Shown: piece by piece, positions 7,151-42,879 of the stretch
How positions within the stretch are numbered: the stretch's first letter is position 1
Layout of the letters: the number at the start of each line of letters is the position of its first letter
DNA from: Psammoneis japonica
Lineage: Eukaryota
Assembly (NCBI GenBank): GCA_008632985.1
Contig: QPGO01000122.1
Coordinates: 124,001-188,000 of the forward strand
Direction: 5' to 3'
DNA length: 64,000 nucleotides
The notes under the pieces: generated by a model
Database searches by the model: none
The model's input: the letters and a program-made list of their open reading frames with translations, nothing else
Told to the model about the DNA's origin: nothing
Program-made: the position numbers and the translations under genes

Positions 7151-7192
7151 ACTCTGGAGCAGGGATCTCTGCTCTCTCCACTCTAGAGGAGA

Positions 7193-9228: not shown

Positions 9229-11208
9229 CAGCAGAGCACCGGTAGAGAGGGGGCTGACGGCTGACCCGCCAGACGACCAATTATCGCGCACATTTTTCGC
9301 GCGACGAACAGCGGTCACGGCAAAACCTGAAACCAACGCCAACGCAACAACACGATAGCAACAACGACACGATGTTTTGCGGGTGTTGATGCTTTATAAT
9401 TCCGTCACGAGTTGACCATCCTCCACTACCAATATGAGTTCAGCTGTTCAGCAGAGTAGCCTCCCGGTTGCAAGTGGATTTCAATTCCAGAGGTCATGGA
9501 GGAGAGTGAGGCATGAAAACGATGACGATTCCTTTTCGTGTCGAACGGACGCTTCCACGGTGAAAGTCTCGAATGTTGGAGTAAGTGTCGGCGGCGATAC
9601 AGCCAAGGATCTTTACACGCGCTCGTTACAACAAGCATGGTTGCAACGTAGAAGGACGTGTGTGGGTGTTGAAATTGCATGTCGCATGATGATTGGAGAC
9701 GCTCTATCGTTTTCATTGTTCTTTCCGCAGTCAAACCAAGGTGTAGTACAGCTTACGCAGATTTCACGTATGTAGAATGAACGATGGATTGTACCATCGG
9801 CCGTTTGACCCTCGCTTTCAAATCTGTTGTCATTTTCAAAAATCTCTACGAATCGTTGTCGATAGCCGTCACTGCCTCTATCAACTGATAACTTACTTGT
9901 TATTTCATCCATCATCATGCAGGACAATCGCCAGAGTGAGAGTAAGTGCTGCTGTGCTCAAAAAACAATGCGCCAGCCACAGTCCACGTTGCTTCCGTGC
10001 TCAACCGTGGTTTCTTTGTTTTTTGCCGTTGCGATTTTACCAGGAGAAGAAAGCGAAGCGCTTCTCGATGGCTTGGTGGAAAGCTTTGGTCAAAATGCTT
10101 CGGAACGTAATGCATTTCTGGGAGCGCTAGCCTTTGTCGCCGGTATGGTGCACACCGGCTGGGAAGGAGTGACCATGGATTACCTTCGTACTATGTACCG
10201 TAGCGTTTCCGTGGAACCAGCCGATGATGTCGTTTTGGAGCGCCTCATTCAACTTCCTCTAGCCCAATGGGAAGACATGAGGTCTCTCATCAACGAGCGT
10301 CTTCGTTCTTTGATCCCCATCAGCATTGGTTACGCTGGCGATAGCACCTCGATTCCTTCGGAGTTGACTACGGACCGGTCCCGGGACGATGGAAACAATG
10401 CTAGTGGAAGCACCGGAGACGATGGGGCAAGTGATGGTGCTGTCATTGCAGCTGGTAGCACCAGTGCATCCACGGCGGCTGGAAGCTCATCCACGGCGAC
10501 GACTGCGGACTCAACTGCCTTCACGGAAGAATGAAGAACCCGTGGCTTTGGCTGGTTCCGCTTTTGAAGTACAAATTTTGGTTTGTCGAATGTGTAGTAT
10601 ATCACTAAGTTTTAGCTAGTTACAAGATGTGCCACATGCAGCATCCTTTCCCAACCTGTTGAGATCGGCTTATCGAAGAGTAACTGTTAGTCTTGACGGG
10701 AAAGCAGTCTTTACCTAAAGTTTCAGCCGTTCCATGTGCCGCTGCTTTTCCATGGAACCCAGACACAATGAGGTTCTGAGCGGTCTTTTGTCACTGGTTG
10801 ACGCCGGCAATGTTTGCAACAGCACATTGACTCCGTGTTGACTCATTGCGCGGTGGGGACCGCTTCGGAGACCATGGAAACAATGCCTGGCTGGGGGGGG
10901 GACCCGACGATATGGCTCAACACTGGAACAAAATGACTATTTCCTTTGACCTTGGCAACTCCACTACCACTACGGTAACGAATGGTACGAATTCTATTAT
11001 TTCTTGGTAAAGCAGGATAAAATGGGCGAGGCGGCAAACTACGAAACGCAGCGTTGTTGCGTGTTGAAACGCTGCAAGTAGAGACACTGGTACGACAGCT
11101 TCTCCGAAAGTAATAGTTGGCAAAATCGCTCGTCTAATCTATCTGGGCCATTAGCGCGCGAGCTAAGCTTGTATGAATAGTGAGCCAGCTGCTTCACATG
11201 ATTTTGCG
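9229..11208 (+). repeat. Tandem duplication copy B (largely unmutated)
   Basis: Colinear with 7193-9222; both copies end in ...ctgggccca..tagcgcgcgag..gtgagccagct..ttcacatgattt. Confidence 0.9.
9917..10534 (+). CDS. Hypothetical protein (possibly the last exon of a longer gene) inside duplication copy B
   Basis: 205-aa ORF of natural-looking composition with a Ser/Thr/Ala/Gly tail; its homologue in copy A is broken. Confidence 0.35.
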   Translation: MQDNRQSESKCCCAQKTMRQPQSTLLPCSTVVSLFFAVAILPGEESEALLDGLVESFGQNASERNAFLGALAFVAGMVHTGWEGVTMDYLRTMYRSVSVEPADDVVLERLIQLPLAQWEDMRSLINERLRSLIPISIGYAGDSTSIPSELTTDRSRDDGNNASGSTGDDGASDGAVIAAGSTSASTAAGSSSTATTADSTAFTEE

Positions 11209-12976: not shown

Positions 12977-15294
12977 ATGGCGTCCCAGGACGAGGACGCC
13001 GCCATGGAGGAGGCCGCAGCAGACGACACTGTCAATCCATCGACTCCTACTCGAAAGGCGTCACCACCCGGAATGAAACTCCGATCGGGGCGAAAGAAGC
13101 GTCGACGAAGCCGAGAAACAACCGGTCTGACTCCCCCAGACGAGAAGCAGGCACGAGCCAAGCGCAAAAAGACGCGAGACGAAGAAAGCGAGGATGAATC
13201 CATGCATGACGCGGATGACGATGATGAATCTATCGAACAAGACGTGGTACAAGCTGCGTCTAACGCTGCTGCGGCAGCTATTTCGGATTCCAAGAAACCT
13301 GCAGCAGCAGCAGCAGCAGCAGCACCAGAAAGCCTGCTGCAAAGAAAACGTTGGAACCGATTCATAAGCTCCGCATGCCGTCGCAACACACTCCGGGTCA
13401 AAAGACGACGAAAAAGACAAGGACAACCATTTCCATATCGGAATCAACATCACCTCTTGTCGCGGATGCAGCAGGGACCGCTACAATTGGAACACCACCA
13501 CCGGCTGTTGGAACGCAGAAATTGCTCTTTGGAAACAACAATAACGCTTCTTCGACGACTCCAGCATCTCAAGAATTGGAAAGCATTCTGGCTCATCCAC
13601 CGCCACCACCCCCTCGACCATCTCCGGATACTCCCGAGGGTCGTCATGATGCTCTTCCACGCAATTTGATTCGAAGAACGTCCGATATGCTTATGGAATT
13701 TACGTCCAACGTTCAAGAAGTCACTACCAATCTCGTGGTGCCTCAAGCGGAACGAATGCAAATGCAGCAAAATAACAAGAGGGGGCATTAGCCAATCGAT
13801 TCCACCCTTGGATCGTACCATGACGTGGCTTGGTTTTTTCTTGTTGCTGCATGTGGTTGTGGCGTTTGCGTATCCGTTGGGATTCAATCCAATCGGCGGA
13901 GCGGTGGTGGCTTTCCCATGTTGGCATGAGTGTGTATGGAGGCGGATCTCCTCCAGAGGTTGCTCTTGCGGTAGACCCGCTGTAGTTGCAGAAAAGGCAA
14001 TGCCACCGGTCAAGGTAACCACGGACGTTGAGTACGAGAATCCCCTGGAACCGTTTATGGAGTTGCTGGACGATTCCATTCAAGCTGTCAACGAAAATGC
14101 CACGTTCTTGAACTCCCACATGGACAAGGTGCAGAAAACGCTAGAGGAGCGCAAAACGCAATTTGCCTCCCTCCAAGGCATCATTGCCAAGACGGAAAAA
14201 TCGCTATCCAATCTCCTCATGGCTCTGCAAACCAACGACGGCGATGACGACGCCAGCAAGGGCATTCGTGGCCCCAATCTCATGGTGACCAAGTTGGGAA
14301 CCAAACTGCAAGCTTCCAAAGTAATGGGTTCCAAATTGTCACAAAGTCCCTTTCCGCCTCTCATTGATGTATCAGCCGTGTCGTTATGGCAAGATGCTCC
14401 GCCGTGTCTGACGTCGTCTCCCACGTCGCAAGATGCCGTCTTGACGCAAGAGAATTGGAAATGCACGACAAGGATTTGCGACAACGAGCTCAAGATGCGG
14501 CACGGCTGCTTCAGACCGATCCCGAATTGTCGGCGTCCATCAAGAGTTGGGTACGCGACCAAGTCAAGGCGGTCTTGGCGGCGCAGCAAATCGACCAAGG
14601 CGATACTTTGAGTAATAAGGCATCGTCGGAGCGCAAATACGGCCTTGCTCAAGAGGACGTCCAACATGTCATTGATAAACGACTCGAAATGGAGTTGGCC
14701 GATCACTTGGGTCGTGTCGATTATGCATCTCTTGGCCGAGGAGCATCCATCGTGACGACGGGTCCAAGGGCCACGTCTCGGTCGCTTGTAGACAATTTGC
14801 CTCTTGTGAATCGTCTCGCGGCTCAATGGAGGTTGCGCTTTTATGGACACGGACCCGAGGCTGCTCTGACACCGACCCAACCAGTGGATGCTCTCGGACA
14901 GTGTTGGTCGTTTGAAGCGCCCAAAAAAGTTAATCAAGACAATGAGAGAGGTGATTTTGGTACGCTGACGGTCAAATTGCCAAGAGCCATCTCGGTAACG
15001 AGCGTTGTGTTGGAGCATGTACCCAAGGAGTTGACCAACCAAGTCAAGAGTGCCTTGAAAGAATTCCGCGTCATTGGCTACGAGGACCCCAACGCCATGG
15101 GCAAACCGTGGTTGTTGGGAAGTTACGAGTACAATGTCAATCATGAACGCGTGTTGCAAGTATTTGAAACGGAAACAGAAACACAAGAGGGTGTGCCGAT
15201 TCCCAAACTACAGTCTGTGACGCTTGCCATTGACACCAATCATGGATTTGATTACACGTGTCTGTATCGTTTCCGTGTACATGGCGATCCTTAG
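12977..15294 (+). CDS. SUN-domain (Sad1/UNC-84) inner nuclear membrane protein; reading frame broken by several apparent 1-bp indels
   Basis: Basic low-complexity N-terminus, TM segment (about 13820-13880), coiled coil, C-terminal SUN motifs DYAS..RGASIV, GQCWSF, SVVLEH, LAIDTNHG.DYTCLYRFRVHG. Confidence 0.9.
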
Positions 15295-18159: not shown

Positions 18160-19363
18160 GGTCGCCATAGCGTCTGACAGGGACGAGGACACCGCAATGG
18201 AGGAAGCAGAAGCATCAGGCGATCCGTCAACTCGTGAAAAACGCAAAGCAAGCAGAGAAAGTGCGTGTGTTACTCCACAAGAGGATGAGGGACAAACCAA
18301 GCGTAGGAAAATAGGACAAGACAAAAGAGAATACATTGGATCCATGCATGATGCGGACGGCGGCGAATCCATCGAACAAAACCATGTCTTGCAAGCCGCA
18401 TCCAACCCTGCAGCAGCTGCTCCACCCAAAGAGCCTGCGGCGCAAGAACTAGAACCTAATAATGCCTTGCAAGCCGCATCCATCCCCTCAGTAGCTGCTC
18501 CATACAAAGAGCCTGCGGCGAAAAACCAAGAACCGAGTCCAAAGCTCCTCATTGACTCGCAACAGACCCCGGGCCAAACCACAGAGAAGACAGCGCAAGC
18601 GAAGACTGCCGTTTCCGCATCGAGATCACCCCTAGTCGCGGATGCGGCAGCGACTGACACAATTGGAGCTCCACCGTCTCCGGCTGCCGGAACGCCAAAT
18701 CTCCTATTTCGAAACGCCACTCCAGCCTCGCAAGAATTGGAAAGCGTTGTGGCACATCCATCACCGCCATCACCTGTAACGTCTCCCGAGGGTCGTCACG
18801 AAGCTCTTTCGGGCAACTTGATTCAGCAAACGTCCGATGTGCTCACGGACTTTTCCTCCGGCATTCAAGAAACGCAAAAAAGCAACAAAATTATCCAATC
18901 TATTCCACCCTTGTATCAAACCATGACGGTGATGGGTATTTTCTTGTTGCTGCACGTAGCGCTTGTGGCGTTCTTTGCACATCCGCTGGGAGTCAGTCCC
19001 ATTAGTAGCGCCGCTGCGGGCATGCACAATGTTGGATTAAGTCTGCAGGGTGGCGGATCGCCTCCACAAGTGGCTGTTGTACCATCCGTTGCAGTTACGG
19101 AGAAGGCGACGGCCAACGATGTCACAAATGACGAGTACCAGAGTCCCCTGGACCCATTGATGGATTTGCTGACTGATTCCGTACAGGCTGCAAACGAAAA
19201 TCCCCACTTGGACATGGTGCAAGAAATGCTTGCGGATCTCAAAACACAATTTGTCTTGCTCCAAGGCGCTCTTGCCAAGACGGAAAAGAACTTGTCGGAC
19301 CTCCTCATGGCTCTGCAAGCCAACGACGATGATACCAAGGTTCTGAAAACAAATTTAGAATGA
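18160..19363 (+). pseudogene. Truncated paralogue of the SUN gene (N-terminus, TM and coiled coil only)
   Basis: Shares DED.AMEEA, SMHDAD..ESIEQ, SPLVADAA, TPASQELES, PEGRH, FLLLHV, EY..PL.P.M.LL.DS.QA.NEN, AKTEK.LS.LLMALQ.ND with 12977-14250; stops before the SUN domain. Confidence 0.8.
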
Positions 19364-20232
19364 CTACAGCGCACATGATGACTTTTGTCGTTGATGTCGA
19401 TGAAAACGTCGAAAAAATTACCAAAAGCTCACAGTAGCCCACGGGAAATCTGGAAGCCAAGTCGAGAGACCCTCGTCAGGTTCTAGCACATATTATATTC
19501 TCCTACATGTTTGCAATAAGCATTTTGTAGCCATGAGCAGTCCATCGAAATCTAGTGGTCGGGAATCCCCTCTCTCTTGCCATACTTACGTCCTTGACTC
19601 CTCTGGTGCCAGCAATGTTGGCTTGTGCACCGTGCTTCTAAACCATGCGGTTGGGCTGATTCGATTTTCGATCTCTTGCCATTTCCCTCCGAAGTTGTCA
19701 AAGTTGCTCTTTCTTTGATAGCATTGCAAGAATCCAGCAGAGTGTGCTAGTTGGTTTGCATTCACAAGGTCGAACTTCAGCAGAGCCCCTTACTTTTATT
19801 CTCTAAGGAATTGTTAGCAAAAGGTAGAGATAGTACGGAGCTTAGTTTGCCTGAAGCGACGCTGCTTGCTCCTCGCTGATTCCCTGCAGCTAGGGCCTTA
19901 CTCCTTCTGCAAGTAGTGTGCTCTTCAACTCATCCGAACTTGCGCTGTTCCCCGAAACCTTTTCTTGCAAAGCTGAGCTCGCAAAATGGGAATCGAGGAC
20001 CATTGGAACAAAACGTTGGAAACAAGTACCGGTATATAGAATACACTATTAAAAAAGACACCACGTGTCAAACTAAAACACGAACCTAATATGTTTTACA
20101 CTTTCACACAGAAGCTACAGCCGTTTCGTCACATCACGACAAGAAGGCATTGACTGCACGTTCCGAAAGTGCAACATGCATACACGGTATCCTTAAAGGG
20201 TAACACAAAATCTCCAGCAGTCTCAACTGCAT

Positions 20233-21480
20233 CTAATAGTAAGGCTTCTTTGGGCACGTGTTTGGTTTGCAATAACCGCCCTTGAACTTTCCTCCCTTCT
20301 TCCAGCACTTGGACTTGGTTAGCATCTTGCACTTGCCAAACTTGAAGCAGCAGGCTCCAACTTTCTCGAGGGGGCAGGTGTTCGGTTTACAGAGAGTGCC
20401 AAGACCGGCGAAGTCTCCTCCAATTCTCTTGCAATACCTCTTCTTGGAATCGATACAAGTATCATTCGATGTGCAGCAAGCTCCAAATGCAGCTGGGCAA
20501 GTCTCCTTGCTACAAAGGTTGCCTTTACCACCAAAGTGACCTCCTTTGCGGAAGCAGGGTCCTTGTTTTAGATTAAGGCACTCGCCCTTGTCTTCGAAGC
20601 AACAAGATCCGCGAACTTCTTTCGGCTTCGGGGTAGGATAGTACGGCTTGTAAGGCTTTGGGGTAGGAGGATAGTACGGCTTGTGAGGCTTGTAAGGCTT
20701 TGGGGTAGGGTAAGGAGTGGGCTTCGGGGTGGGATAAGGCGTCGGCTTCGGGGTGGGATAAGGCGTCGGCTTCGGGGTAGGATAGGGCGTCGGCTTTGGG
20801 GTTGGGTAGGGCGTCGGCTTCGGCGTAGGGTAGGGCGTCGGCTTCGGGGTAGGGTAGGGCGTCGGCTTCGGGGTAGGGTACGGCGTAGGGTAGGGTGTCG
20901 GCTTCGGCGTAGGGTAGGGCGTCGGCTTCGGCGTAGGGTAGGGCGTCGGCTTTGGCGTAGGGTAAGGCGTCGGCTTCGGCGTCGGCTTCGGCTTATAATA
21001 CGGGGTGTGAGGCTTGTGAGGCTTCGGCGTCGGCTTATAAGGCTTGTGAGGCTTCGGCGTCGGCTTATAAGGCTTGTGAGGCTTCGGCGTCGGCTTATAA
21101 TACGGGGTGGGAGGCTTGTGAGGCTTCGGCGTGGGCTTATAATAAGGAGTGTGAGGCTTCGGCGTAGGCTTTGGGGGGTAATACGGAGTGTGAGGTTTCG
21201 GCTTATGCTTTGGCTTAGAATGGTCCTTTGGTGGGCACTGGTCGTAGGGCAAACATTCTGAGCCATTTCCCCTGTAGTAGCCACCCTTCCTCGCGCAGTT
21301 TCCAGGCTTGAGGTTTAGACACTCTTTAGGTCCATAAGTGAAGCAGCACGCTCCACGATATCCCAACAACTGCCTGTCGACGACAGATTCCTGCGAATCG
21401 TTGTACTTTGGGCTGTCCTCATGACCGTTGACAGACACCAAGTACCAAAGACTAACGATGGAGACAAAGGAGAACTTCAT
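20233..21480 (-). CDS. Secreted Pro/Thr/Lys/Tyr-rich extensin-like protein with four Cys-rich GACC modules
   Basis: Signal peptide [22 protein letters not shown] motif, one G(A/S)CC..C..C..GG.(F/Y).G.G..C..CP module, (PTPYPTPK)n and KPHKPY repeats, then three more modules. Confidence 0.85.
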
Positions 21481-21949
21481 CTTTTTCTTGCACCCGTTTG
21501 CCGAATGGCTCTGTGCAAAAAAAGTGAGACGCTTTTCATGTGTTGAACAGCGTTGCTCGACAGTCTGGTCCCATTCTCGAGGGTCTTTTTCTGGTACAAA
21601 TTGTACACCAGGATCCACGTGAAAAAGACAATTGCTTGTGAGCTAGATTGATAGTGACAAAATTTGTTCGCCTCGCCGAACTCAAAACAAGTGATATTAA
21701 TTTTCACTATAAAAAGAAATTCCATGCCACATTAATTGTGGTTACGTGACTTTCCCATATAATTATTTACTATACCAGCGTAACTGTACGAGAGACAATT
21801 AAGAATATTTTGACGACATAAGCCCGGCTTTAGAAACATTTAGTTGCGAAAGGTCACTTAAGAAGCTTTTCGTTCAAGTGCTGCTCTCATTACTGCCCAC
21901 AGATAATCCAATAATTCCTTCATTTGCTAAATAACTTTCGACATTGAAT

Positions 21950-24700
21950 TTCTCACACCCGATTTGTCTTAAATGGCATCGTGTGGCCAGCCAAATGCAC
22001 AATGGACAATGCACAAGATCGATCTCATCTGTGCCCCGTGTGAAAAACCATTTCCTCTCTGCTCTCGAGATGACTCTCCCGAGTCAGGCTTTGACATCAC
22101 ACATGTGTCACATTCGTGCTTGCAGGTGCAAATGAGTTGTTTTGCGAGGAGGGAGTGTGGCACAACTGTCGTGGAGCCTGGCGGCCAGAAGCGTCACTTG
22201 GAGCACGAGCCTCGCAGCAGCCAGGTGTGGTGCAACAAGGACCATCGGCATGCTTGACAGCTGCTGTGGGTGCCCACAAATTTGGCACTGGCAACTGGCA
22301 ATTTTGCTTTGAAATCTGCATTCAGAGTGTGCTGCTGCCCAACACCAAGAACAGTGCTCGAGAGGGAGGGCACCAGTGCCACGCAGTGATGCTCCAGAAA
22401 GTGCACAGCTTGCCATGTGTGATGCAAACAATTGCTGAGCAACTTTTGCTTTAAGCATGAGCAACTGCACCCACTCCTGCCTAAAAACAACAACCAACAG
22501 AGATTGGCCCCATCTGAGGAACACTTCAAAAGTGCCAGACAAAGAAGATGGGAGAAAGAAAGAGCTCTCAGGATGGCAGAGCTTGTTTCTAGTTTCTTGT
22601 TGCTTTTTCTCTTGCAAGCCACAAGCAGTCAATCAAAGTCAGCAGAAGGCAGTGCAAAAAAACATTGTGTTGATGACCCACATCATCAACTCTCAGCTTG
22701 CTGCTGGCAGGCAGGCCAAGGCCAAAATGTGGGCAGGCTGAAAAGGTGACAGGAGAGAAGGGCATCAAAATGTCAAAATCTTCCTCAGCTTTGAAAAAAT
22801 GATTTTAAAAAGCATTGAAATTGTGCTGGCATGCAGAGGTGACCAGGTTGCTCAGCTGTTAGAGGAGAGCCAAAACACAAGATGTCTGAAGTCCATGCAA
22901 TGCAACAAGAATGGCGTTGCACACAATGACGCGAAAAAAGAAAAAAAGTCTCCATTTGCCAAGCAACCCTGAGCTGTGAGGAGGAATGTTTTTTGCAATT
23001 TTGTGTCAGAGTGCACCAGTGATCCCAACAAAAGTGGTCAAGTCAGTGCCAGATGGCAAGTTGTCTGACCACAACACAAAGACAAAAAATGCCAGTGGAA
23101 GGTGCCATTTGGCGTGGGTGCTGGCCACACAAAAAGCATCAAGGACAGCCCAGAGTTGCTGCAAAAGACATCAATTTGGTTGCAAAAATTTTGGGACCAG
23201 ATGCTGGTGGCCTCAAAGGGAAAAGCACAGAGTGCAGATCAGAAGCCAGCTCCCAGCAATCAACAATGGCGCAGAGACCCTCTGAAGGAACCCATGACTG
23301 CCAAGCAAGTGTGCCATCTTGCCAAAATGAGCAGCATGCCAAAAGGCCTCAAGATTAAGAGTCAAGCTGGCAAAATGCTTTTTGACAACACTTGGCATGC
23401 AGGAGCAGACAAGACAAAGAAAAATTGGGCAAGGAACGCTTCAAAGAGAAAAAAAGAAAATGAGAAGATTGACTGCTCTGCAAGAAAATTGTTGTGCAGC
23501 ATGGCTGACAGAGACAAAATTGAAGATCTTGAATGTGAGAAAAGATCATGCAGACAACACTCAAGATGCAAAAAGTCCTCTGCCAGAAGAGAGCACTCAA
23601 GGGTCTGAAAAAGATCTTGCTTCTCTTCCCAACAAAAACTAAAAATTGGAGTGTTTGACTGACAAGTCCAAAGAGGCACTTCTTTCATTCAGAAGCCAAG
23701 TTCAGAAAATGAAACTCAAAATGATCAGAAAAAAGATGTGCTGGATGCCATCATGAACAAGGTGATGGCTGTTCAAGCAACAAAAACTCAAGATTTCTTT
23801 GGACAAGATCTGCCAGACCACACCACCAAAACCTTCAATGTGCAGCAATGCCAATGTCATCATCTGCAAGCTCAAGCTGCCAACAAAGTTGAGAAGCACT
23901 TGTTGTTGGCAGCAACAGCAAGAGCAGTCATGGCCACAGTGTGTGTGTTTTTGTGCCAGGTGTTCATGCCTCCCTGTCTGTGTGACTGCATTGAAAACAA
24001 TGAGTGTGAAAGATTGCATCAAAAATGAGGCAAGTGAAAGACATGATGCCGTTCAAGATTCAAGGGGTGCTGGCATGCTGTGGGAGAAAGCAGTCTCATG
24101 TTTCCAACAACAAAAAAGATGGGGTGGCAAAGTCAAGGTGCACACATTCTCTCTGCACAAGGAAGCATGACAAAGTGCCACACACAGGAAAGATGAAGAC
24201 TCATCTGTGTGAAATGTTGAACTCTTCTCACCACTCAATTGCAAGATGCTCCAACACAACATTGAATCAATCAAATTTGGTGCAATGAATTTGCTTTCTT
24301 GCAGCTGTAAGCAGAAAGCAGCACACTTTTTTTGGCATGCTGCAGATGATTGAGAGCATCAACTCACAGCATGGACAGCAACACCAATGGTGACAAGCTT
24401 CTCAAGCAGCTTGTGAAAAAAAGCATGTCATGTCTGGGTGTGATTCTGGGTTTTGTTCAACTCCAGAAGCGTTGCAAGTTGATCAAGTTGCATGTGTGCT
24501 GCACTCCATGTTTGAGGAGTTAAAGGAACTGTCAGGGGGGAAGATGGGCTGCCCATGCAGTGCAAATCTGTGCAAGGTTGGAATGACCTACAAAATGTCA
24601 GAGCCCAAGGAGCAAGCTCAGCTCTTTTGTTTTTTGCTGTGAAAGGCATCATGTTTGTCTGCAAGAGAGGCAAACAGAGTGGTTGACCTGCCTTGCCTCC
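21950..24700 (+). mobile_element. Highly decayed Ty1/copia (CoDi-like) retrotransposon relic
   Basis: Residual peptides ILGPDAGGLKGKS (about 23190), MPKGLKIK..G..LFD.TW.AG.D (about 23340) and KKDG..K.R (about 24115) recall diatom copia pol; TpA and CpG nearly absent. Confidence 0.6.
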
Positions 24701-27224
24701 CTCTCTTTCTGCTCATGTTGCCAAAGTGCCATCAAGCTGGATTTAAAAAAAAAAAACTTGCAACACTTTTGAGCATTCTTGACAGAACTTGCTGCAATGT
24801 TTGCCTCTTCACTCAAGGCAAGCAATGATCAGAACATTGGTGCACAGCACATTGGTGCTGTTTCTTGAGCTCCCACTCACACATTGACTTAAAAAAAGGC
24901 CTTGCTGCTGGTGGCATCACAATGCTGGTCAATGGCGCCATTTTGCCTGTGCAAGGTGCACAAAACAAAGGGCTGATTTGGCCAGCTCTGTCAATGCAAA
25001 GGCCATCACTGGAGACACTGTTGGGGTGGCCAAAGGTTTTTTGGACCAAACCCTCCATTCAAGCTCAAGGATGCACAATGTTGTCAAAATGGAAACAACC
25101 CAAGTGCCATGAAGTCTGGAACAGAATGGCAGGGCAAGCTCTGAAAAAGGTGTGTGGGACTTTGACATTGGGCATTTTTACATTGTGTCACTGGCCTCAC
25201 CAAGCAAGGGCAAAGTTGAGGTTGTGTCATCACCTGTGCAACAGTCAAAATGAAAGCTGTCCTCATGACAAAGCCAGAAGCTGGACCAGATTTGTTTGTG
25301 ATTGTGAGGACACTGTGAACTTTCAACGCTGGGTTGCCAGATCATTGGACCAAAGAATTGGGCTGCAAGAAGAAAGTTTTGGCTGGTCATGTTCTTGATC
25401 TGTTGGCAAACAGTTGCCTGGAGCACATGAAGTTTGAGTTTCAGCTGTGTTGTCAGTTGATCAAGGGCATTTGAAAACTCACATTGTCACCAGTTCAAGC
25501 AGCAAATCTCAGAGCCACAGGGCAAGAAAACACAACAAGTGTCAGGACAACATAAAAAAATTTGCAAAAATGTTCAAATCTGACAAAAAAACAAACCAAG
25601 AAGCCTGAAGCCTTGGCTTCTGTTTGAGCACAGGTGGCAAAGGACAGCACATGTGGATCAGCTCACTCGTGGGGTTTTTTGCTCTTTTGTTGGGTTTTTT
25701 GCTCTGTTGTTGACATTTCTGTGTGGTGCAAGATTGTCCTTTTCTTTGGATGTCTGCACTGACACTTCAGTTCTCTCTAAAAAGCAACAAGACCTAAAAG
25801 GAAAATCTCAGCAGCACAGCATGGTGTGAGTTTGAGAATGTGACATGTTTGCTCACACTTTCTCTGTGCATCTGCAGCCGTTTGGTGTGAACAAACGTGC
25901 TGTCTTGCACAACCTTTTTGTTTCACCCAGCACATGAAAATGTGACAATTCTTGTTGGTCATTTTTGTTGATGTTGCAGAAAAAAGAGCAAGTCATTTGG
26001 GGCAGCAATGACAGAAAAGCAGTTTGCCTGGTGTGGCCGCCGGCTGCAATCAATGCATCAATTGCCCTCTGTTGCTCTCCAAATCTGCTTCTTCCAGTGG
26101 CTGGTGCACTCATGAATGAGCTCTCTGATTGGTTTTGGTGCAAGCCACAAGAACCAGATCTTGAGCTTGAGGTCCAGATCTGAGGCACCTGGATTTGGAT
26201 CTCTGCTGACCAGAGAGCTGCAAATGGTGCTGGGTGATGTCGGCTGCAAGCTGCAAGCAAAAACTCACTCTCAACTGCCAACAACATGCAGTGCAATGTT
26301 GATGAGAGAAAAGAGTGAGCTTGCCAAAGCTCAAACGGTGCTTGCAAACTTGTGTGCTGCATCAGCATCATGAAAAGCAGTGCAGATCATGAAAACAACC
26401 CCACACTCATGCAGAGGGGGGGGGGCATGCAGGGGGCAGGTGCAGACCACTGTCTCTCAGCCATTGGTCTCCAATCTGCACTGAAGCATTTTTGAGAGTG
26501 CAAAAAACATGGCCAGCAGATTGTTTGTTGCTGCAGGAGGTTCAGTCAGAAGATTGGCTCCCAGCCTTTTTTTGCACTTTGGTTGATCTCGCTTCTCATT
26601 GATGCAGTCACAACAATGATTTCTGTGCTTGTGTCTCTGTCAAGGGGCCTGCAGGACCAAATCAACTCTGCCACATTGCACAGAAGCACTGCTGGGGCAA
26701 ACTGGAGGTGGCTCACACATGAGTTTGCAGGTTGGATGCCCTCAAAGGTGATTTTGCTCATGCTTTGTGTGTGCTCTGATGATGCACACACAGCTTCAAC
26801 CCAAGGAAAACCCTGCTTGGCAGCATTTTTTTGTTTGTTTTGCAAATCAAATGATTCATCAAGAAAACATTAATCTTCTGAACCTGCAAGTCAACTTGCA
26901 GAAGAGCCCGGGCTTCCAGACTTGTGTGTGTGGCCTCTGGCACACACCACACACATTTTTGTAACTTTTTTTTGTTCAGAGCAAGCAACATTCATCGAGG
27001 ACCAGTGTCTGGTCTGTGTGGTTCTTCAGACAAAATTGAAAATGGCACAGGGTTGATCAGCTGCCCTGCTGTGCATCAGCCAGCCATGCAACCCCCACTC
27101 TTGCTCTTGTTTGTGGCTCGCAGCTGTGTGAGCCTTCACCTCCTCCTGGGTGCCAATGGAGTCAGCGGTTTTCAAGTTTTGCTGGGGTTTGTGTTTTGTT
27201 TCTGATCAGAAGATGTTTCTGTTT
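24700..27224. repeat. Decayed repeat-derived DNA of unassigned class; target of the copia insertion
   Basis: Same TpA/CpG-depleted composition; no recognisable intact ORF. Confidence 0.45.
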
Positions 27225-27457
27225 GGTCACGACTCAACGTCATTCTGGTCGCATCTCACGACTGCAACCCAGACTCAGATTTTCTCTTCGAAACAATTGG
27301 CTCATCACAAAATCGATTCAAACAGAAGCAACGACATTCGTCATAATTTTTAGACAACGACTTTGAACAAGCGTCTGTTTGCCTCTGTGCTGCTCACATT
27401 GCTGCCAACCTCCGAGGTCTTGTCCATCCTACCCAGCTGCAGGACTGCATCTCGACT
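27225..27457 (+). repeat. 5' LTR (hypermutated)
   Basis: Ungapped match to 34234-34466 with 12 substitutions. Confidence 0.95.
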
Positions 27458-27619
27458 GGTCACAGAACCCAAGTTTACGCGTTGACGAGAGCTCCTGACC
27501 GAGTCATCGTCACGGATGCTTTCGGTTTTGATTTTGAAGCAAACCCGGGAAATGGCTGAGTCTCTCTCGCTTCTCTCGTCTTCATTCTAACAAGAACCTC
27601 CCATGCCACACTCTCTGTC

Positions 27620-29050
27620 ATGGCTGCCATCTCGATCCGGCTGTTCTGGCGAAGGCGTTTGCCGACGCAATGGCCGCCAACGCCGCAGCGACCGCTCCTC
27701 TGCCTCCAACCAAGCCGTTGTGTGGTGGAATTCACCCAACCCACGGGGCCCACATTGGTGGTTCCAAACTCAACGACAGGTGTGAACAATCCAACGACAG
27801 AACCTGCTGACTCGCCTCTCAGCGCCGTCATCCCAAGGCTCTTGACTCAACAGAACGATCTCTCCGCGATCAACAAGCTTCCGCAATGACTTCCAAGTTC
27901 AACGGTCGACTTGAGATTTTGGACGGTCCCATCAACGAACTTGACAAGGACCATTTCGTCAAGACCATTCGAGATCTAGCAGAAGCCCACGGTCAGCAGA
28001 CGTTCTGCCATGTCAAGAACAGCGACGACACGGTTCAACGCATCTTCGATCATCTTCACGAGCCCACTGTGACCGATCTCGTGAACGAGCACACGGTTTG
28101 GAAAGCAGCCACCGATGATGCCAAGTATGACGAGATCAAGCTCGACGACATCGGGCTCTCTCAACTTCTCGTTCACTCAAGAATCACCAACGCCTTTCGC
28201 GAGAAAATCGAGACCAAGTTCAACCATCTCCAAGACTGCCAAGACTGCCCTGGATCTGTTCTGTTCATGATGGCTCTCGACACTTGCAATGCCAGCGCTC
28301 TAACGGACATTGAGACGGCCAAGAAGCAGCCAGAAGACCTTGGTTTGGTCAACCATCCCGGCAAGGATTGCACGGACTTTGCCACCGAAGCTCTTCGCAT
28401 CGTGAAAATTGTGCAGACCGACTGCGCGCTTCCAGCGAACACAAGCTCCAAGCTGCTCCACAAGATCTCCTCTACGTCCTCTGAACACTTCAATCGGCGA
28501 GTCCGCAACAAGCTCGACGACGTCAAGGCTATGGAACGCAAGTGCCGCCTCAAGAATCCTGCTGACATCGTGTCCGACAGCGATTGCAACACGCTCGGAC
28601 CGGTCGGCATCATTGTGTGGATTCAGGAGCAACACAACGAACTCGTGAAGGACGGGGAGTGGCCTGCATTGGTCGCCAAGCTACCCGAGAGCAATCTTTC
28701 GACTGCGGATGACCCTGGGAAGACGAAGCACTGCTTTGGTTGCGGTCTCGAGGGGTGCACCAAGAAGACGTGCCCGAAGTGCAACGCCAAACCGCCGCGC
28801 AACGATCCTCCTCCCAATCCGCCGCCTGCAGCCGACCCTTCTAAGAAGAAGAGGTGACCCATCGCTGCCTGGCGTGCTAAATTTGACAGGGAAACGAAGA
28901 AGGATGAGAATGGCAAGGAATGGAAATGGTGTGCCACGTGCACGGCGAAGGGTGCCGACAAACCTGGAATTTGCCAGAAGCACTCTACCGCGGAACACAC
29001 GAAGACCACCACAAGCGCCCTCCCAAGGAGACCCCAGCCGGGAATTTGTC
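27620..29050 (+). pseudogene. gag region of the copia element with a degenerate zinc knuckle
   Basis: ORF pieces 27620-27889 and 27886-28857; CFGCG.EG.TK..CP knuckle; WKWCATC-type motif at about 28920; interrupted by stops or frameshifts. Confidence 0.7.
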
Positions 29051-30439
29051 TTCTGTTGCTGATCCGGATGGTGGCGTGCCCATGGGTCCGCCAGCTCAGA
29101 CTGCCATGGAACCAGAGGGAGACGACTCCGACCCCAACGAGTTGGTTTTCTCAGGAATGTGGTGCGCGGCTACGGATGCCGTTGCCGACCCAGATTTCTG
29201 TTCCGCCCCTGTTGCTGCTGCAATTGTTGTCACTCCGGCTTCTTCGGCCGAGAGGGAGAGCGATGCAGTCGTCAGCACTGAGGTGGTTTGCAACGAAACG
29301 AGCCCACCTGCACTCACCTCAGTCGTGGATCCAGTCGTGTCTCCCATCGTGGTTGAGACTGTCACTCCCGAAGATGCCGATGACTTCTGCGAATGCTCCG
29401 ACGCTTTCTCTACATTTGAAAACGAACCACCAGCTATTGAGTTGTTTCCGGCCTCGAAGCTGCACTCCATCAAGCATTCAGATGAGTTCTTTGACGCTCC
29501 CGCACATTTGATGGACATGCTGTCAGACGACACAAAGTTGGATCTCATCCTTGAACACGACGTACACTTTGAAGACGCACACCACGACTCACCTCCGTGT
29601 GTCACATGTCGTGGCTTTGATTTCTACGATCCAGAGGTCCTGGATGCGGATGATTGTCACGAGGACGTCGAAGACGAGCCCACTTTGCGTCGATCAATCT
29701 TGGGACGGGTCAAACTGTTCATGTTCTGGCTCGCCGCCATGTTTTGGGAAACGGCACTACATCTTTGCTTTGCTCCGATCCCATGCATCCCTCGAGCTCT
29801 ATGCCGCCAGCGCAAACTCCCAACCTTGCACGGGTTTCCAGCCTCCTGGATGGTCCCATCCGTTGCAGTGATGGCATGGTCAGCAGTTTGCGCCGGTCAA
29901 CAGCCCGAGTGTCCATTCTCGAACGTTCCAAGCCGTTTTTCGACCGCTGGCTCTCAAGTCTACCATGTTGTGGAAGAGCTAGATGACCGGACAGTGTTGG
30001 ATGCGGGGTCACTGTTCGAACATCACAGGATCAAAGGCACGCAAGTGCTCACCGAGTTTGTCGCGCGCCATCCATCACACGCACTGAGCACTCGTCTCAA
30101 GGCCCACTGGGAGAGCCTGGGAGCAGCTGAACGGTCTGATGCGATGGACGAATCAGCCTTCTTTGACACCTGTGAGGAACTGGAACCTCTCGACGACCAG
30201 AAGTATTTCTTCGACGCTCTTGAGGACTTCAGCCCGGATTTCTTCCGGTTTGACGAGCTCTGTCTGCCGAATCACATCGTGGACACTGCCCATTTTCAAG
30301 ATCCTGTGGAACTGTTGGAGGAAGCAAGTGTCAGACCCGTCGTCTACAACACCTCCACCATCCAACTGCTCACTGGACAATCTCAAGCCGACCTCCTTGC
30401 ATCCGATCCGCAGGCACTCATCGGCCTGTCGGACGAGGC

Positions 30440-33400
30440 TCTCGGTCGTCATGGATGCTGGTGCCACGCTGGCTGTTGCCCCCGACAAAGATGATTTTAC
30501 GGGGCCTGTGACTGTTCCCAAGAAACCCTCACAGATCAATGGGATTGCCAATGGTCCAACCATCCAGGGTGCAGGTCCGGTTGCGTGGGTGTTCACAACG
30601 CCGAGTGGCGCAGCCATCCAACTGAACACCATGGCATGCTACGTCCCTGGAGCCCGTCAACGCCTGCCATCGCCTCAATGCCTCTTCAACGAAGAGAAGG
30701 GGGCACGTGGGAAGCATGAGGGTGATGAAACCACTTTCCGTTTACACATTGACGGGATGGGCAAGTTGGTCGTGCCATGTCATCAACCAAGCCACTTGCC
30801 CATTGCGTCGATGACCAAGGGCGCATCTGCCGCTCCACAAGTGAATCTACAGATCCTTGACGAGGAGAATCAAAACCTCACGGCAGGCCAGAAGCTTCTT
30901 GTCGAAATGCACGCCCGTTTCGGCCATTTGAACTTTGGTCGCGTCCAAGCACTTCTCCGCGCAGTTCCATTCCTTTCGAACCGTTTCAAGTCCGCAGCGA
31001 AGTGTGACCACCCAAGATGCGAGGCATGCGAGTGTGCTAAAGGTCACAGACGCTCCCTTGGATCTACTCACAAGTCGACAGTCCCTGAATGCGACGGGGC
31101 CCTTCGAGCTGACCATCTTCGACCGGGTCAGGCTGTCAGCGTTGATCATTTTGAGTCGCGCCTTTTAGGCCGAACCTTCGACTCACATGGCAAAGCCACG
31201 TCCAAGCAATTCAAGGGCGGTTGCATCTTTGTCGACCATGCCTCTGGATGTGTCCAGGTTGAGCACCAACTTGGTTTCTCCACTGTTGAGACGATTCGAG
31301 CAAAGCAAGCGTTTGAGAAACATGCTTTGGACCACGGTGTCATCGTCCAAGAATTTCTTGCCGATGGTGGCGCTTTCAAGGCCAACGCTTTTGTGCAACA
31401 CATGCGAGACCATGAACAACGTCTCCGTTTTTGTGGAACCAACGCCCATCATCAGAACGGCGTCGCAGAGCGGGGTGTCCGAAGCATCTCCAACATGGCG
31501 AGAGCGATGTTGCTTCATGCATCAATCCACTGGAAAGGGGGAATTGACAGCTCCCTGTGGCCCATGGCTGTTTCTCATGCCACGCACATCTACAATGTCA
31601 CCCCAAATTCCAAGGGACATTGCCCAGTGGACATTTTCACCGGTTCGACAGTGCCAAGACATCGATTGCGAGACATTCACACATGGGGATGTCCAGCGTG
31701 CGCACTTGATCCAACCCTTGCTTCCGGAAAGAAACTCCCGCGTTGGGAACCTCGCACTCGTCGCGCTTTGTTCGTGGGACTCAGTGCCATCCATTCCAGT
31801 GAGGTTCCTTTGGTCCTCAATCTACAAACTGGCAGTGTCACTCCTCAGCATCATGTGGTCTTTGACGATCTCTTCACAACCGCGCCATCAATCGAGAGGG
31901 AGACGGATCCACCTGATCACTGGGAACACTTGTGCCTCAACCAATCGACATGCATCCCTCTGGAGAAGGATCAAGCAGTTCATTTGCACGATGAGTGGCT
32001 TGCCCCTCCAGAGCGTCAACGTAAAGAGCGAGAACTGGCCAGAGCAACACGTGTTCGCGGCCATTTTGAGCCTGCTCCATCAATTGCTGTGCCGGATTCA
32101 CCCACTTCTCGTGACGACGTCACCGATCGAGTCGCACCTGCGACTCAGCAGCCAACGCCACCAGTCCCACCTGCGACTCAAACTCCTGCAGACTCCACGG
32201 ACTCTACGCCAATTCAGCCACCTGAACCTCAAGATGGCAACGAACTTCCGCCACCCAAAGTGCCGGCGGAACCAACAGCTCCTCCCCCAGTCGAGACACC
32301 TCCTGTGACGAATCCAGAGGGAGCACCAGGGCTGCGATGGTCTTCACGGTCAACCAAGGGACAGCTCAACTCTGCCAAGTTTGCAGATGAGGTCCACCTC
32401 AGCTCCGTCGAGGAAATGCCACCACCGATCGGACACGAGGCTCAACTGGCATGTCTGGCAACTCTCGAGATGGATTTGGACAGTGGCGCCATCAATGTCG
32501 GCGATCCATGAGCCTACGCAGCTAGCAAGAAAACCAAGGACCCTGACATGCCTTCGTCACACAATGCTCTGAAAGGTCCAGACACCGACGAATGGACCAA
32601 GGCGACGAAAATTGAAGTCAACGCACTCACACATCGTCGAGCCTGGAAAGCAGTCGAGCGTCAGCCGCACATGAATGCACTTCCAGGTGCATGGGCACTC
32701 AAGCTCAAGAGACTCCCAGATGGAACCCCTCTCAAGTGTGAGGCCCGATGCTGCGTCCGCGGTGATTTACAGAAAGAAGGAGTCAACTGCTTCAAAACCT
32801 GCGCGCCGGTTGTGCAATGGTCCAGCGTCCGACTCATGCTCACTGCGGCATTAAAGGAGGGATGGACCACATGTCAGGTGGACTGTGCCACAGCCTTTTG
32901 CCAAGCTGATGTCACCGAGGAAGTTCACACAACACCGCCGAAGGGATTTGCGCTGAGGTCGGGACTCAGTGTGGTTCTCAAACTTTTGAAAGGACCACAC
33001 GGCCTAAAACAGTCTCCCAAGGGCTTCTGCGAGAAGTTACGAGCTGGTTTAACCGAGCGCGGATGGGTGCCTTCAGCCACAGATCCCTGTTTGTATTTCA
33101 AAGAGGGTGTGATGTGTGTGGTGCACGTCGACGACACCGCATTTGCTGGAGCTTCAGCTGAAGCTCTAGAAGCAGAAATTTGCAAGTCAGGAGTCTCCGA
33201 CGACGAACATCGCCACGTGTTTGAACTAAGAGACGAAGGAGAAGTCGGCAACTTTCTCGGTGTCAAGATCAAAAAGCTCTCCGAGGGTCGATTTCTACCC
33301 ACTCAACCCGGTCTAATTGACAAGGTCCTGCGTGCCGCACAGATGCAGGATTGCAATGGAGCATCCACTCCAGCTCTGCCCACGGCTGTTGGTGCCGACA

Positions 33401-34212
33401 CGGATGGCCCACCTTTTGATGAACCCTGCAATTGTCGCTCAGTTGTTGGAATGTTGATGCACTTGGCAGCGAACAGCCGGCCAGACATTGCATGTGCCAC
33501 ACATCAAGTGGCTCGATTCTCGTTTGCACCCCGAGCGTCCCACGCTGCTGCAGTGAAGCGGATGCTCCGACACCTCAAAGCAACTGCTGCTGAAGGTCTC
33601 ATTCTCAAGCCTGCGCAAGATCATCGAGTTGATTGTCACGTCGATTCTGACTTCGAGGGGTCATTTGGTGTGGAAGATGGTCAAGACCCAGTTTCTGTCA
33701 AGTCCAGGACTGGACACCTCATCTGCTGCGCCGGCTGCCCGCTCATCTGGGTGTCCAAGCTGCAGACTCTTGTGGCATTGTCGACTGTGGAAGCGGAGTG
33801 TGTCGCACTTTCTCAAGCCATGTGCGATCTCATCCCCATTCGTGAGGTTCTCAAGGAACTCAACCACCACGCACTCGGAAAGTCTGACCGCCAAAATCCC
33901 ATCACGACTCACTCCAAGGCTTTTGAGCTCGCAAACCAAGGCACCGATGACTCACCTGTAGAGCAGAATGTCCTGCCTGCGTCCATTGTGTACGAAGATA
34001 ACTCCGCGTGCCTCAAGTTCGCACGTGTGCCCAAGTTGTCTCCGCGAACCAAACACATCGGCATCCCGCACCACTGGTTTGGGACTAAAGTCGAACAATT
34101 GGAGATCGATGTCCAACCTATCAGCACTCTAGAGCAACTAGCCGATCAGTTCACGAAGGGACTACGGACCGATGCGTTCCGTACGGCTAGAAAGGCTCTT
34201 ATGGGCTGGTAA
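30440..34212 (+). pseudogene. pol (protease, integrase, reverse transcriptase, RNase H) of the copia element
   Basis: VVMDAGA (PR), HARFGH..CEAC (HHCC), VSVDHF / FLADGG / QNGVAER (DDE), HGLKQSP, HVDD, HVDSDF, LSTVEAE, EDNSA, RTKHI, QLADQFTK; in-frame TGA at 32509-32511. Confidence 0.95.
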
Positions 34213-34233
34213 GCTCTCTCGGTTGAGAGGGAG

Positions 34234-34466
34234 AGTCACGACTCAACGTCATTCTGGTCGCATCTCACGACTACAACCCAGACTCAGATTTTCTCTTCGA
34301 AATAATTAGCTCATCACAAAATCGATTCAAACAGAAGCAACGACATTCGTCATAATTTTTAGACAACGACTTTGAACAAGCGTCTGTTTACCTCTGTGCT
34401 ATTCATATTGCTACCAACCTCCGAGGTCTTATCCATCCTACCCAGCTGTAGGACTGTATCTCGACT
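34234..34466 (+). repeat. 3' LTR (close to the ancestral state)
   Basis: Follows the polypurine tract; begins AGTC and ends GACT; followed by TSD tgttt. Confidence 0.95.
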
Positions 34467-35020
34467 TGTTTGAGACAAAAGTTGACTTTTGGAACTTTGT
34501 GTCCTCTCACAGTGCCAAGCAAACTCTGATGGTCTCCAGCTCGCCACACCAGGTCACCACGACACGGTGTGTCAAGCAGCTGTTCTTGGAGTGTCGTCAC
34601 AATCATTTTGCAGCTTTCAATGGACCATATTTGTTGTTCTTTACCCTTTTGCTACTATTTGACTTTTAGATTCCAATCATGCGGACACAACTCAACCTTT
34701 GTCTGATTTTCGCGTCAATTCGTCGCCCCTCCTAGTTTCGAAAACGAGGATTGGTGGAGAGCTCTCCTATGCTCGACGACACTTCTGAAAACAAAAGCTG
34801 ATATTCGCAACGTAACCGATCAACCATATATACACTTGCCTTTTCCCTATCATCGGGTATGCGCACTATCAAATCGCTTAACTTGGTATCCTCGGTGAAA
34901 TCTCTTTAGAAAGTGCGATACGTTGTTTGACACAGAATTACTTGTGCTGATTGACTTTCAAAACATGCCCGAGAGATTTGGCGCTCATAAACTTACTTAA
35001 TCTGATGCTCTGTCGCATAA

Positions 35021-37083: not shown

Positions 37084-37905
37084 TGAGTGGCTGGAGTTGA
37101 TCCAATGAATCACTTTTGAGTCGTGTTTTGGGCGCGACCGACCTCGTTGAAGGGATTGATTCACGCTTTCCGATCTTTCGACAAAACACATTTGTCTCAA
37201 TCGAGGTGGTTCTCCCTGACCACTTTTTTGCACAATGCTGTAGCCATGCATTCGACGTTTTCATTATCGTCTCATTGCCATTGTTGCCGACCTGCTTTTA
37301 TCACAGCATCATCATCAGGCATTGTCAAAATTCGACTTGAGTGAGGAGGAACAATCCCCAGCACCTTCCCACTTGAAGACTTGAAGAACCCTTTTTGTCG
37401 TGCATGCTGCGGAAGCTGCCATGACATGGACAAGAAGTGAGCCATGACCACTGTTCTCATTTGTTTGTGCTGATCATGAGTGCAGCCTGAAGTGTCAAAA
37501 ATGACAAAAAAGAAGAAACCACAGCACATGCCTGAGTCATGCTTTTCGTCACGGCTGCTCTGAGCTCGTCGATGCGCCTCCTTCTGTTTTTCAATTGCAG
37601 ACGTCACAAAAGACAACAAGGGCATGTTGGCAAAGCTCGAGGCATTGACACATGCCATTGGAGGCTGTGGAGGCCAGCACGAGCGAAACCTCTCCACATC
37701 ACATGTGTGCCATCCCAACAAACGACGATGTGATGGAACACGCACACTCTTGCATGTTGTTCTTCGACTGCCAGCTGGTGTCTGTGCTGGAGGAGGCAAT
37801 GGTCCTTGAGGTGCAATCAAGTTTTGACTTGGGATGGCTGCTTGATGCACTGGCATTGGAAGGGCACAATCTTGATGAGAGATTTTTGGCTTTGGCTTCC
37901 AACCA
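37084..37905 (+). repeat. Hypermutated copy of the segment also present at 45586-47150
   Basis: 37084-37450 matches 45586-45950; 37440-37905 matches 46549-46995 and, more loosely, 45950-46395. Confidence 0.85.
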
Positions 37906-41708: not shown

Positions 41709-42879
41709 CAGAAAGTATGGTCTTCAGACGACAAACCTAGATTGTTACTGTAAGGTACAAGTCGTTCCCGACAACGACCCGAATTTATTCAGGACGAGTC
41801 TCAAACCACCTTTACCGATTAGAAGGCAACAAGAAGCAAAAACTAAACAGCACTCAGTGGTATCTCTTGAGGTATTGTATGTCTCGAGGTACTGTGTGAC
41901 TTGAGGAGGTACTGCACTGGATGCTGGATAGGAGCGACTCTGAACTCAGAAGCAACTGAATTGAAACTGTGAGTACTTATCAGGATAGAGCTAATGCACA
42001 TGCATCATGTGTATAAATAGAGACAATCTTATCAGCGTCTTACCTTGTATGAGGAATCGACCGGATGATACAGCGTGTCAAAGTTTCATTGTCACTTCGT
42101 GAAAAAATGTGTGTGTTGTTTTGCAGCGCGTGAGAAAATGAGCAACCCCGCTACTGTACTCGTAAGGTTGGACAGACCGCAACTCGTCGTGTGGACCGAC
42201 CGGACCGACTACTGTAGCTAACGTGGTACCTACTTCTAACTACCGGTATCGACTACCGGTAACTTCTGCGCACGTCTGTGTTTGCAACATCTGCGCGGTG
42301 ACCGTACATACAATCAAAATCTTATAAAGCCTCACACACACAGTCTCAAGTCTCGTGTTGTTCTGCACGATGCGCAATAACGTCGTTGCTCTCACACACA
42401 TCATTGAACATGACGGCTGTGACAGCAAAAAGCCAATGGCACGTCTCTCTCTACTCGGAAATGGGTTGCCGCCGCACTAGATTCGTCAACAGAACAAACA
42501 GTGCCAGCACAATTCGTTCGCAGCACACACAGCTTGCGCCAAACAACCATGACACAGTGCAGCAACTCTTGTGATTTTCCTGCTTGTTGATGTTGCAACT
42601 CATGACACTTGCACTGCTGGTAAATTTGGGTGGGCATAAAACTTGTATGATGCTGCTCAGCAGTGCAATTTGGTCATAGTGTAAAACTTACACTGAACAA
42701 CAACGCCGCTGCAGTGCCCAATTCTTGCCACTTTCCCGCTCCTTGCAACTCACAAGACTTGCACTGGTAAAATTCGGCGAGGATCCTAATTCTTTGGTGA
42801 AGCCTTGGTTGGCTGCTCATTGTTTTTGGAGCAATTTTCTGTTCTCAAAACAGCAGATGTAACCAAGGCTCGTTGGCAT

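Follow-up and report, generated by a model that had tools for sequence, protein, structure and literature searches.

The window analysed here, a 64,000-nucleotide (nt) stretch of the diatom Psammoneis japonica (GenBank assembly GCA_008632985.1, contig QPGO01000122.1, positions 124,001 to 188,000 of the forward strand), contains a segment of some 5 kb from which the dinucleotide TpA (TA) has almost disappeared, adjoining a Copia-type long terminal repeat (LTR) retrotransposon that has lost much of its own TA. The original prediction held that the TA sites surviving in this segment lie mostly in the context YTAR (Y, pyrimidine; R, purine), suggesting an enzyme-like specificity. Two-state segmentation on TA delimited six depleted blocks in the window; totalling 26.3 kb, they have observed/expected (o/e) TA ratios of 0.04-0.16 and reduced CG, and the surrounding DNA has TA ratios of 0.5-0.67. 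The largest depleted block begins with the focal segment, 5.3 kb long. Comparison of Copia copies established securely that the strand on which TA is followed by a pyrimidine (TAY) is preferred for the change of A to G. The features at the centre of the analysis are:

21971 to 27225, no strand assigned: focal block erased of TA and CG; 19 TA left (first T at 21970), 14 of them YTAR and 12 in TAAA/TTTA
27226 to 34469, forward strand: Copia-type LTR retrotransposon, partly TA-erased; RVT_2 at E=8e-30, with gag_pre-integrase and SH3 matches weak and below cut-offs
27226 to 27460, forward strand: 5' LTR, adjoining the focal block; TA steps converted; it differs from the 3' LTR at 10 TA, in 9 cases on the TAY strand
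34235 to 34469, forward strand: 3' LTR, largely spared; adjoins undepleted DNA

Between 21950 and 27220, exactly 19 TA were counted where the original prediction had estimated about that number by eye: eight TTAA, four CTAA, two GTAA, and one each of CTAG, TTAG, CTAC, TTAC and ATAA. By class these are 14 YTAR, in agreement with its figure for CTAA, TTAA, CTAG and TTAG together, five mixed and no RTAY, and the survivors that it cited (22481, 22589, 23355, 24890 and 25794) are present within one base. The four CTAG that it placed at 282, 1186, 1289 and 1552 all lie inside a second block (167-1814), three of them in its tandem repeats, so that those three are not independent. Relative to undepleted window DNA, in which 228 of 1455 TA (15.7%) are YTAR, the focal enrichment has p=3e-8; this background is too lenient, and the dinucleotide make-up of the block itself leads one to expect 37% YTAR (p=0.0014). 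Survival of the NTAN tetramers is thus not merely proportional to background frequencies. In the six non-Copia depleted blocks, YTAR accounted for 33 of 74 TA against 32.7% expected (p=0.02), and the clearer signal was the scarcity of RTAY (2 of 74, against 18.3% expected; p=5e-5).

The focal block is old, decayed DNA. No Pfam family was recognized in any of its six frames, nor in any of the 24 frames of this and three other depleted blocks, and a search of the 91-Mb genome found no long copy, only short matches of 65-89%, mostly to 26040-26490. Run X1, which possibly derives from the same strain as the assembly, has a short-read contig covering 21506-27253 with four differences, one of them a TA/CA pair within TTAAA and two of them CG/TG; the block is therefore real sequence and not an assembly error. 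Run X2 had no coverage of it. Over the same interval X1 gave a single contig at depth 68, with a TA-rich loose end at 21755, and 19016-21654 summed to about 100-210 over several contigs; the erased block may be present on one haplotype only.

The process could be quantified with the Copia element, for which 41 matches were found in the genome. Thirty-nine copies were assembled (38 fetched together with that of the window), and 30 young ones were kept after removal of one near-duplicate and eight older or diverged copies. From 327 TA-origin sites, 292 were used, 35 with impure immediate flanks being dropped; at these, 3475 TG, 2513 CA, 1864 TA and 61 other states were scored among 7913, the requirement that at least 90% of copies read TA, TG or CA favouring few other states. 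The rule by which sites were chosen passes over those now carrying one product in nearly every copy. In total, 76% of TA-origin sites now read TG or CA, with a loss of 60-88% per copy. Away from TA, A to G changes per site-copy amounted to 0.62% at AA, 0.40% at GA and 0.26% at CA, and C to T changes to 4.1% at CpG and 0.3-0.55% at other C; the specificity of the TA process for a 5' T is therefore 100-fold or more, and CpG decay is much slower than it. Changes from A:T to G:C were accordingly found almost only at TA, and both strands were affected equally once context was modelled (strand term 0.01-0.04).

The direction of change was confirmed at columns with at least 70% Tyr among 120 related reverse transcriptase (RT) proteins, where 12 of 12 residues of the window copy are Cys (4) or His (8). 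No Tyr-poor protein occurs among these 120 relatives from other organisms; being open frames, they under-sample erased copies. Where both LTRs of a copy were mutated, they shared the same product at 66 of 113 sites (68.7 expected under independence), and the changes therefore arose after insertion. For the window's own LTR pair, the claim that 9 of 11 events fit TAY to TGY was borne out: there are 12 differences, of which 11 are transitions, 10 are at TA and 9 are on the TAY strand. Patchiness of survival within copies extended over about 40 nt and, weakly, to about 350 nt, which may reflect chromatin or shared history. Local co-loss of TA and CG was weak (r about 0.01-0.02, z about 2.2), local CpG density gave no support as a guide to how fast a site changed (rho 0.02), and a nucleosome-scale periodicity was not supported either, one weak bump being seen at 202-221 nt. 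In the window copy the erased domain stops within the element, whose last 500 nt (33959-34469, including the 3' LTR) retain most TA.

Context effects at these sites were estimated with a competing-risk model that sets the two strands of every TA against one another, the multipliers being relative to A and their intervals obtained by site bootstrap. On the edited strand, the multipliers at +1 were 3.25 for C (confidence interval (CI) 2.44-4.33), 3.07 for T (CI 2.22-4.29) and 1.19 for G; at +2 they were 1.96 for C, 1.68 for G and 1.36 for T. Upstream, A was fastest at -2 (C 0.66, G 0.57, T 0.60), and at -3 the values were 0.41 for T, 0.79 for C and 0.92 for G; positions -4 and +3 brought no gain in held-out fit. 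The per-context rates, which the original prediction had proposed to derive from transposable element copies, are faster for TAY. At the 165 asymmetric sites, where one strand only reads TAY, that strand won 137 times and lost 22, and in 24 Copia LTR pairs it took 75 of 97 asymmetric events. Taken by codon position, the +1 pyrimidine multiplier ranged over 2.1-3.3, and sites beyond the two long frames gave 2.5, so that codon selection is no explanation. The multipliers were stable between the two halves of the element, for sites outside the long frames and whether copies were less or more mutated, and the likelihood of held-out sites improved in 10-fold cross-validation.

The advantage of TAY over TAR is therefore about 3-fold per strand, a preference rather than a rule, just as had been proposed. 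The exceptions reported near 37700 are genuine TAR-strand events; at these sites the favourable A at -2 belongs to the TAR strand, and the less frequent outcome was realized. The mean proportion of TA kept was 51% at YTAR, 9% at RTAY, 62% at TAAA/TTTA and 78% at YTAR within an A-tract. At YTAR neither strand reads TAY, hence its survival; the A-tract contexts are as much a refuge. An enzyme-like specificity, as first suggested from YTAR survival, would thus rest on the 5' T discrimination together with the flank effects, and was an incomplete description in that -3, -2 and +2 also matter and TAAA/TTTA shelters TA equally.

The effect at -3 proved to depend on CpG. With the upstream pair at -3/-2 taken together, CG had a rate of 0.23 of the fastest, TG, TC and TT 0.24-0.31, and CA, CC and CT 0.67-0.85. 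In an analysis of six contrasts, C of a CpG at -3 stood at 0.31 and other C at 1.23 (ratio 0.25, CI 0.16-0.36); against T (0.42) the ratio was 0.73 (CI 0.47-1.09). A single class of T or CpG-C at -3 fitted held-out sites as well as separate terms, the four-term model with this class having the best held-out likelihood, and its effect was stable across element halves, copy subsets and codon positions (0.23-0.52). T and 5-methylcytosine (5mC) share a 5-methyl group. The C to T rate at CpG is about 10 times that of other C, as expected for methylated CpG, and the CpGs of the erased DNA are probably methylated; diatom transposable elements are described, in the accessible text of one study, as CG-methylated islands (PMC9998398). 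Together these suggest, as a strong lead, that a methyl group at -3 of the edited strand clashes with and hinders the enzyme.

Predictions from the Copia-trained model were compared with sequence elsewhere. In the focal block, 15 of the 19 survivors fall in the slowest context quintile and the other four in the next; of the 74 survivors in the window, 64 fall in the two slowest quintiles, as do 115 of 122 TA in 10 depleted loci on other contigs. At the depth of erasure of the focal block the model expects about 46% YTAR, which the window-wide value of 45% fits; the 74% of the focal block exceeds it (p=0.014), probably owing to the block's A-tracts and small number of sites. The remaining depleted blocks and duplicated segments of the window are:

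167 to 1814, no strand assigned: TA-depleted tandem-repeat block with the CTAG survivors
4395 to 9089, no strand assigned: TA-depleted block, TA o/e 0.05
7388 to 9089, forward strand: TA-erased copy of a duplicated host segment, CG lost too; unmutated partner at 9345-11070, 84% identity
36961 to 39443, no strand assigned: TA-depleted block, TA o/e 0.04
37442 to 37903, forward strand: TA-erased copy of a duplicated segment, with the two TAR-strand exceptions near 37700; unmutated partner at 46549-46992
42788 to 45641, no strand assigned: TA-depleted block, near single-copy, TA o/e 0.07
57968 to 60620, no strand assigned: TA-depleted block, TA o/e 0.06

An independent set of 447 events at 251 distinct sites was drawn from three piggyBac families and the two duplicated host segments, and here the TAY strand won 97 and lost 32 decided sites. 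Within this set the CpG effect replicated in part, the CGTAY strand winning at 6 of 22 sites and the [AG]GTAY strand at 21 of its 32 decided sites (p=0.012). In 37442-37903, 13 of 14 TA are now TG or CA. Each duplicated host pair has a single copy erased for TA and CG beside an intact partner, and targeting is therefore not simply by duplication, as it is in repeat-induced point mutation. Near single-copy DNA is erased too, as in the focal block and at 42788-45641, for which the genome search gave no useful copies. An older duplicate pair in undepleted DNA (13354-14240 and 18530-19328, 66% identity) keeps TA in both members. Three piggyBac copies of 97-99% identity (L116 on C114, L117 on C345 and L118 on C214) have some 500-nt bins erased (1-5 TA) and others near intact (25-29 TA), which reads as early stages of the same process.

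On balance, we consider it somewhat more likely than not that a host deaminase like TadA/ADAT edits silenced, methylated mobile and duplicated DNA, converting the A of TA to G after insertion. As proposed, this enzyme would act on CpG-methylated sequence, on either strand and at single sites over many generations, the likeliest chemistry being deamination of deoxyadenosine to deoxyinosine by a zinc deaminase with the TadA/ADAT fold. A 5' T would be obligatory; the reaction would be about 3-fold faster with C or T at +1, about 1.5-fold faster with A at -2 and about 1.65-fold faster with any base other than A at +2, and a 5-methyl pyrimidine, either T or the 5mC of a CpG, at -3 of the edited strand would slow it about 2.5-fold. 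YTAR and TAAA sites would be slow on both strands, and hence the last to survive. Strict TA, pure transitions and the +1 readout are together best fitted by adenine deamination by an enzyme of this fold, and both the 5' T/U requirement and the order YAY>YAR that mark TadA/ADAT-type enzymes were found here.

Several observations weigh against this account. The advantage of A at -2 vanished at sites in Tyr positions (1.12, 40 sites). In the independent set the CpG term added only 0.82 log-likelihood units (CI -4.0 to 5.3), and T at -3 was without effect on strand choice (45/83, 13/27 and 11/22), a bias that a slow +2 A on the opposite strand would mask. A CpG starting at +2 (TANCG) made sites 1.88 times faster than other C (CI 1.38-2.63) and TACG, with the CpG-C at +1, proceeded at 0.52 times other TAC; a methyl clash explains neither. 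The old piggyBac family C (73% identity) did not support the rule, with TAY taking 7 of 15. The hairpin-loop or single-strand preference of TadA/ADAT-type enzymes was not seen: a crude stem score for hairpin-loop propensity bore no relation to rate (rho 0.03, p=0.41), and strand choices at nearby sites of the same copy showed no coordination at any distance (|z| no more than 1.9), so that hits accumulate singly and not in single-strand bursts. Natural ADATs redirected from tRNA offer parallels, in the 5' U of one and the DNA activity of the other, and neither has the flank rule found here: as far as the accessible text of each report goes, fungal Tad2-Tad3-Ame1 edits mRNA with a strong 5' U and A or G favoured at +1 (PMC11156358), and amphioxus ADAT2/3 deaminates DNA at GAA and in hairpin loops (PMC10354150).

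Profile searches of the genome also failed to find a dedicated enzyme, yielding nine matches to PF00383 and five to PF14437, which we take to be ordinary deaminases of the deoxycytidine monophosphate, TadA, ADAT2, RibD and guanine types. PF02137 (A_deamin) gave four matches in two genes, which may have a DNA-acting role:

C40, 112674 to 113392 (L088): A_deamin-domain gene
C79, 344558 to 345390 (L089/L090): second A_deamin-domain gene

The second has 270 relatives at E<=0.001, of which the named ones are from diatoms (Cylindrotheca, Seminavis, Skeletonema, Attheya, Stephanocyclus and Thalassiosira); the 120 relatives listed carry no second Pfam domain. This conservation is not discriminating, and the gene is possibly an ADAT1 paralogue.

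Of the other explanations, the one that best survives is a mutator reading TA only, the flank effects coming from DNA shape, access or unequal repair at A-tracts, CpG steps or nucleosomes. The strong retention of TAAA/TTTA (mean 0.62, against 0.09 for RTAY) would be expected of it, as would the loss of TA faster than the model predicts in GC-richer surroundings (rho -0.19) and the patchiness of survival up to about 350 nt, and the +2 CpG effect is of a shape or recruitment kind. It is nevertheless unlikely, since the effects pick the strand at one and the same site (137 versus 22), which is beyond access alone, and since C at -3 matters only before G, where it equals T.

An error-prone Y-family polymerase resembling Pol eta, recruited to silenced repeats and inserting G opposite T, could account for A at -2 being favoured and for both strands being affected without clustering; A to G changes at WA motifs, with ATA prominent, are reported for this polymerase in the accessible part of a preprint (10.1101/783118). 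WA, however, includes AA, and the two motifs are not both mutated here (AA to AG 0.62%, against 76% at TA); the inertness of AA, together with the rarity of non-transition states (61 of 7913 at TA-origin sites of the filtered set), renders the polymerase improbable. We give similarly little credence to a lesion on T, such as oxidation by a TET/JBP-type thymine-modifying enzyme at 5'-RTA-3'. Oxidised T can pair with G, and as a TAY strand always lies opposite RTA, sequence data are blind to the strand of the lesion; the pattern at -3 reads simply on the A strand, and the genome has no match to Tet_JBP (PF12851), a weak argument as control genomes gave none either. A modified A is thus the probable lesion.

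Editing of retrotransposon RNA by an ADAR-like enzyme, or error by reverse transcriptase, before insertion is very improbable despite the two A_deamin-domain genes and a 5' U preference that fits ADAR (10.64898/2026.01.13.699255, accessible text): RNA-level editing is excluded by the independence of the two LTRs of a copy and by the involvement of DNA transposons and duplicated host DNA, both strands are equal once context is modelled, TAG is slow here, and the shared LTR changes, single strand and confinement to retroelements that mark such editing were not found. That the YTAR excess arose by chance and base composition, or by purifying selection on codons, is scarcely credible although the focal block's composition does lift the YTAR expectation to 37% and only 19 sites remain, for it is refuted by the direct per-site rates at all codon positions and by replication in other families.

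Deamination of A by a TadA/ADAT-like enzyme, the reading that we prefer, can be set beside several known systems. The closest is that of Bigelowiella natans, where, according to the accessible text of a preprint (10.64898/2026.01.13.699255), TA changes to TG or CA on both strands, exclusively in integrated DNA of nucleocytoplasmic large DNA viruses and virophages; two viral inserts were followed in mutation-accumulation lines, the rate was raised about 1000-fold per generation, and ADAT2 was proposed as the enzyme but untested. Its main text contains no flank rule beyond TA, and the words 'context', 'CpG' and 'diatom' do not occur there. The two systems share the same change on both strands of genomic DNA and a confinement to foreign or mobile regions that spares genes, seen here as sharp blocks, though duplicated host segments are also affected. 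They differ in that Bigelowiella is a rhizarian with viral inserts, whereas in this diatom LTR elements, DNA transposons and duplicated host DNA are erased near to completion, with CpG loss.

Among engineered enzymes, the TadA-derived editors ABE7.10, ABE8e and ABE8e-YA act with the order YAY>YAR (PMC12528748, PMC10188366) and show TAT as an off-target motif (PMC11983105), and TadA itself makes contact with the base at +1 (PMC3239186), as stated in the accessible portions of these papers. Like the diatom process, these editors convert A to G in DNA, prefer TA and disfavour AAA; unlike it, they are guided by Cas9 and accept CA as well as TA, CA being inert here (0.26%). The accessible text of the three editor papers mentions no -3 methyl effect.

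Repeat-induced point mutation (RIP) of ascomycetes is repeat-directed and converts C to T at CpA. It resembles the present process in being repeat-directed, dinucleotide-specific and genome-scarring, and differs in its opposite polarity, in that a cytosine methyltransferase offers no route from A to G, and in that near single-copy blocks are erased here; changes of CA to TA were found at only 0.12%. Diatoms are noted in the accessible text of one study to carry a DNMT4 related to RID, of unknown function (PMC9998398). A search of the genome with PF00145 gave 27 C5-methyltransferase matches, several of which (L148, L149, L150 and L154; C301 and C297) lie in TA-erased DNA (o/e 0.03-0.11), with others unaffected in appearance (0.39-0.65); those in erased DNA are possibly mobile or duplicated genes caught by the process.

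Taken with these systems, the data tentatively suggest, at somewhat less than an even chance, a natural repeat-targeted deaminase of chromosomal adenine serving genome defence in living diatoms, with strict TA, a TadA-like TAY preference and a steric -3 methyl readout through which the host's CpG methylation would tune it locally, whose logic, and perhaps enzyme, would be shared with Bigelowiella across the stramenopiles, alveolates and Rhizaria. The literature search, covering few subscription papers and so not establishing absence from print, found only the Bigelowiella preprint and no description in a diatom; the accessible text of a further paper (PMC12344493) does not mention TpA. For a genome-wide A to G mutator of repeats there is thus one precedent among the publications found, with no enzyme and, in its main text, no flank rule; the present measurements supply the per-context rates and the -3 effect. 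The signature of obligatory TA, +1 pyrimidine (about 3-fold) and T or CpG-C at -3 (about 0.4-fold) allows candidate enzymes to be assayed directly, makes it possible to test whether diatoms and Bigelowiella have machinery in common, and offers a means of separating deaminase from polymerase models. Should a natural deaminase of chromosomal adenine exist, it would be of interest to base-editor engineers. Since Tyr codons become Cys or His, the dating and annotation of diatom transposons are distorted.

One further feature of the window lies close to the focal block. On the reverse strand, 20233-21642 forms an open frame in which cysteine-rich parts flank a long Pro-Thr-Pro-Lys/Tyr repeat, and many variants of it occur among the X1 contigs.

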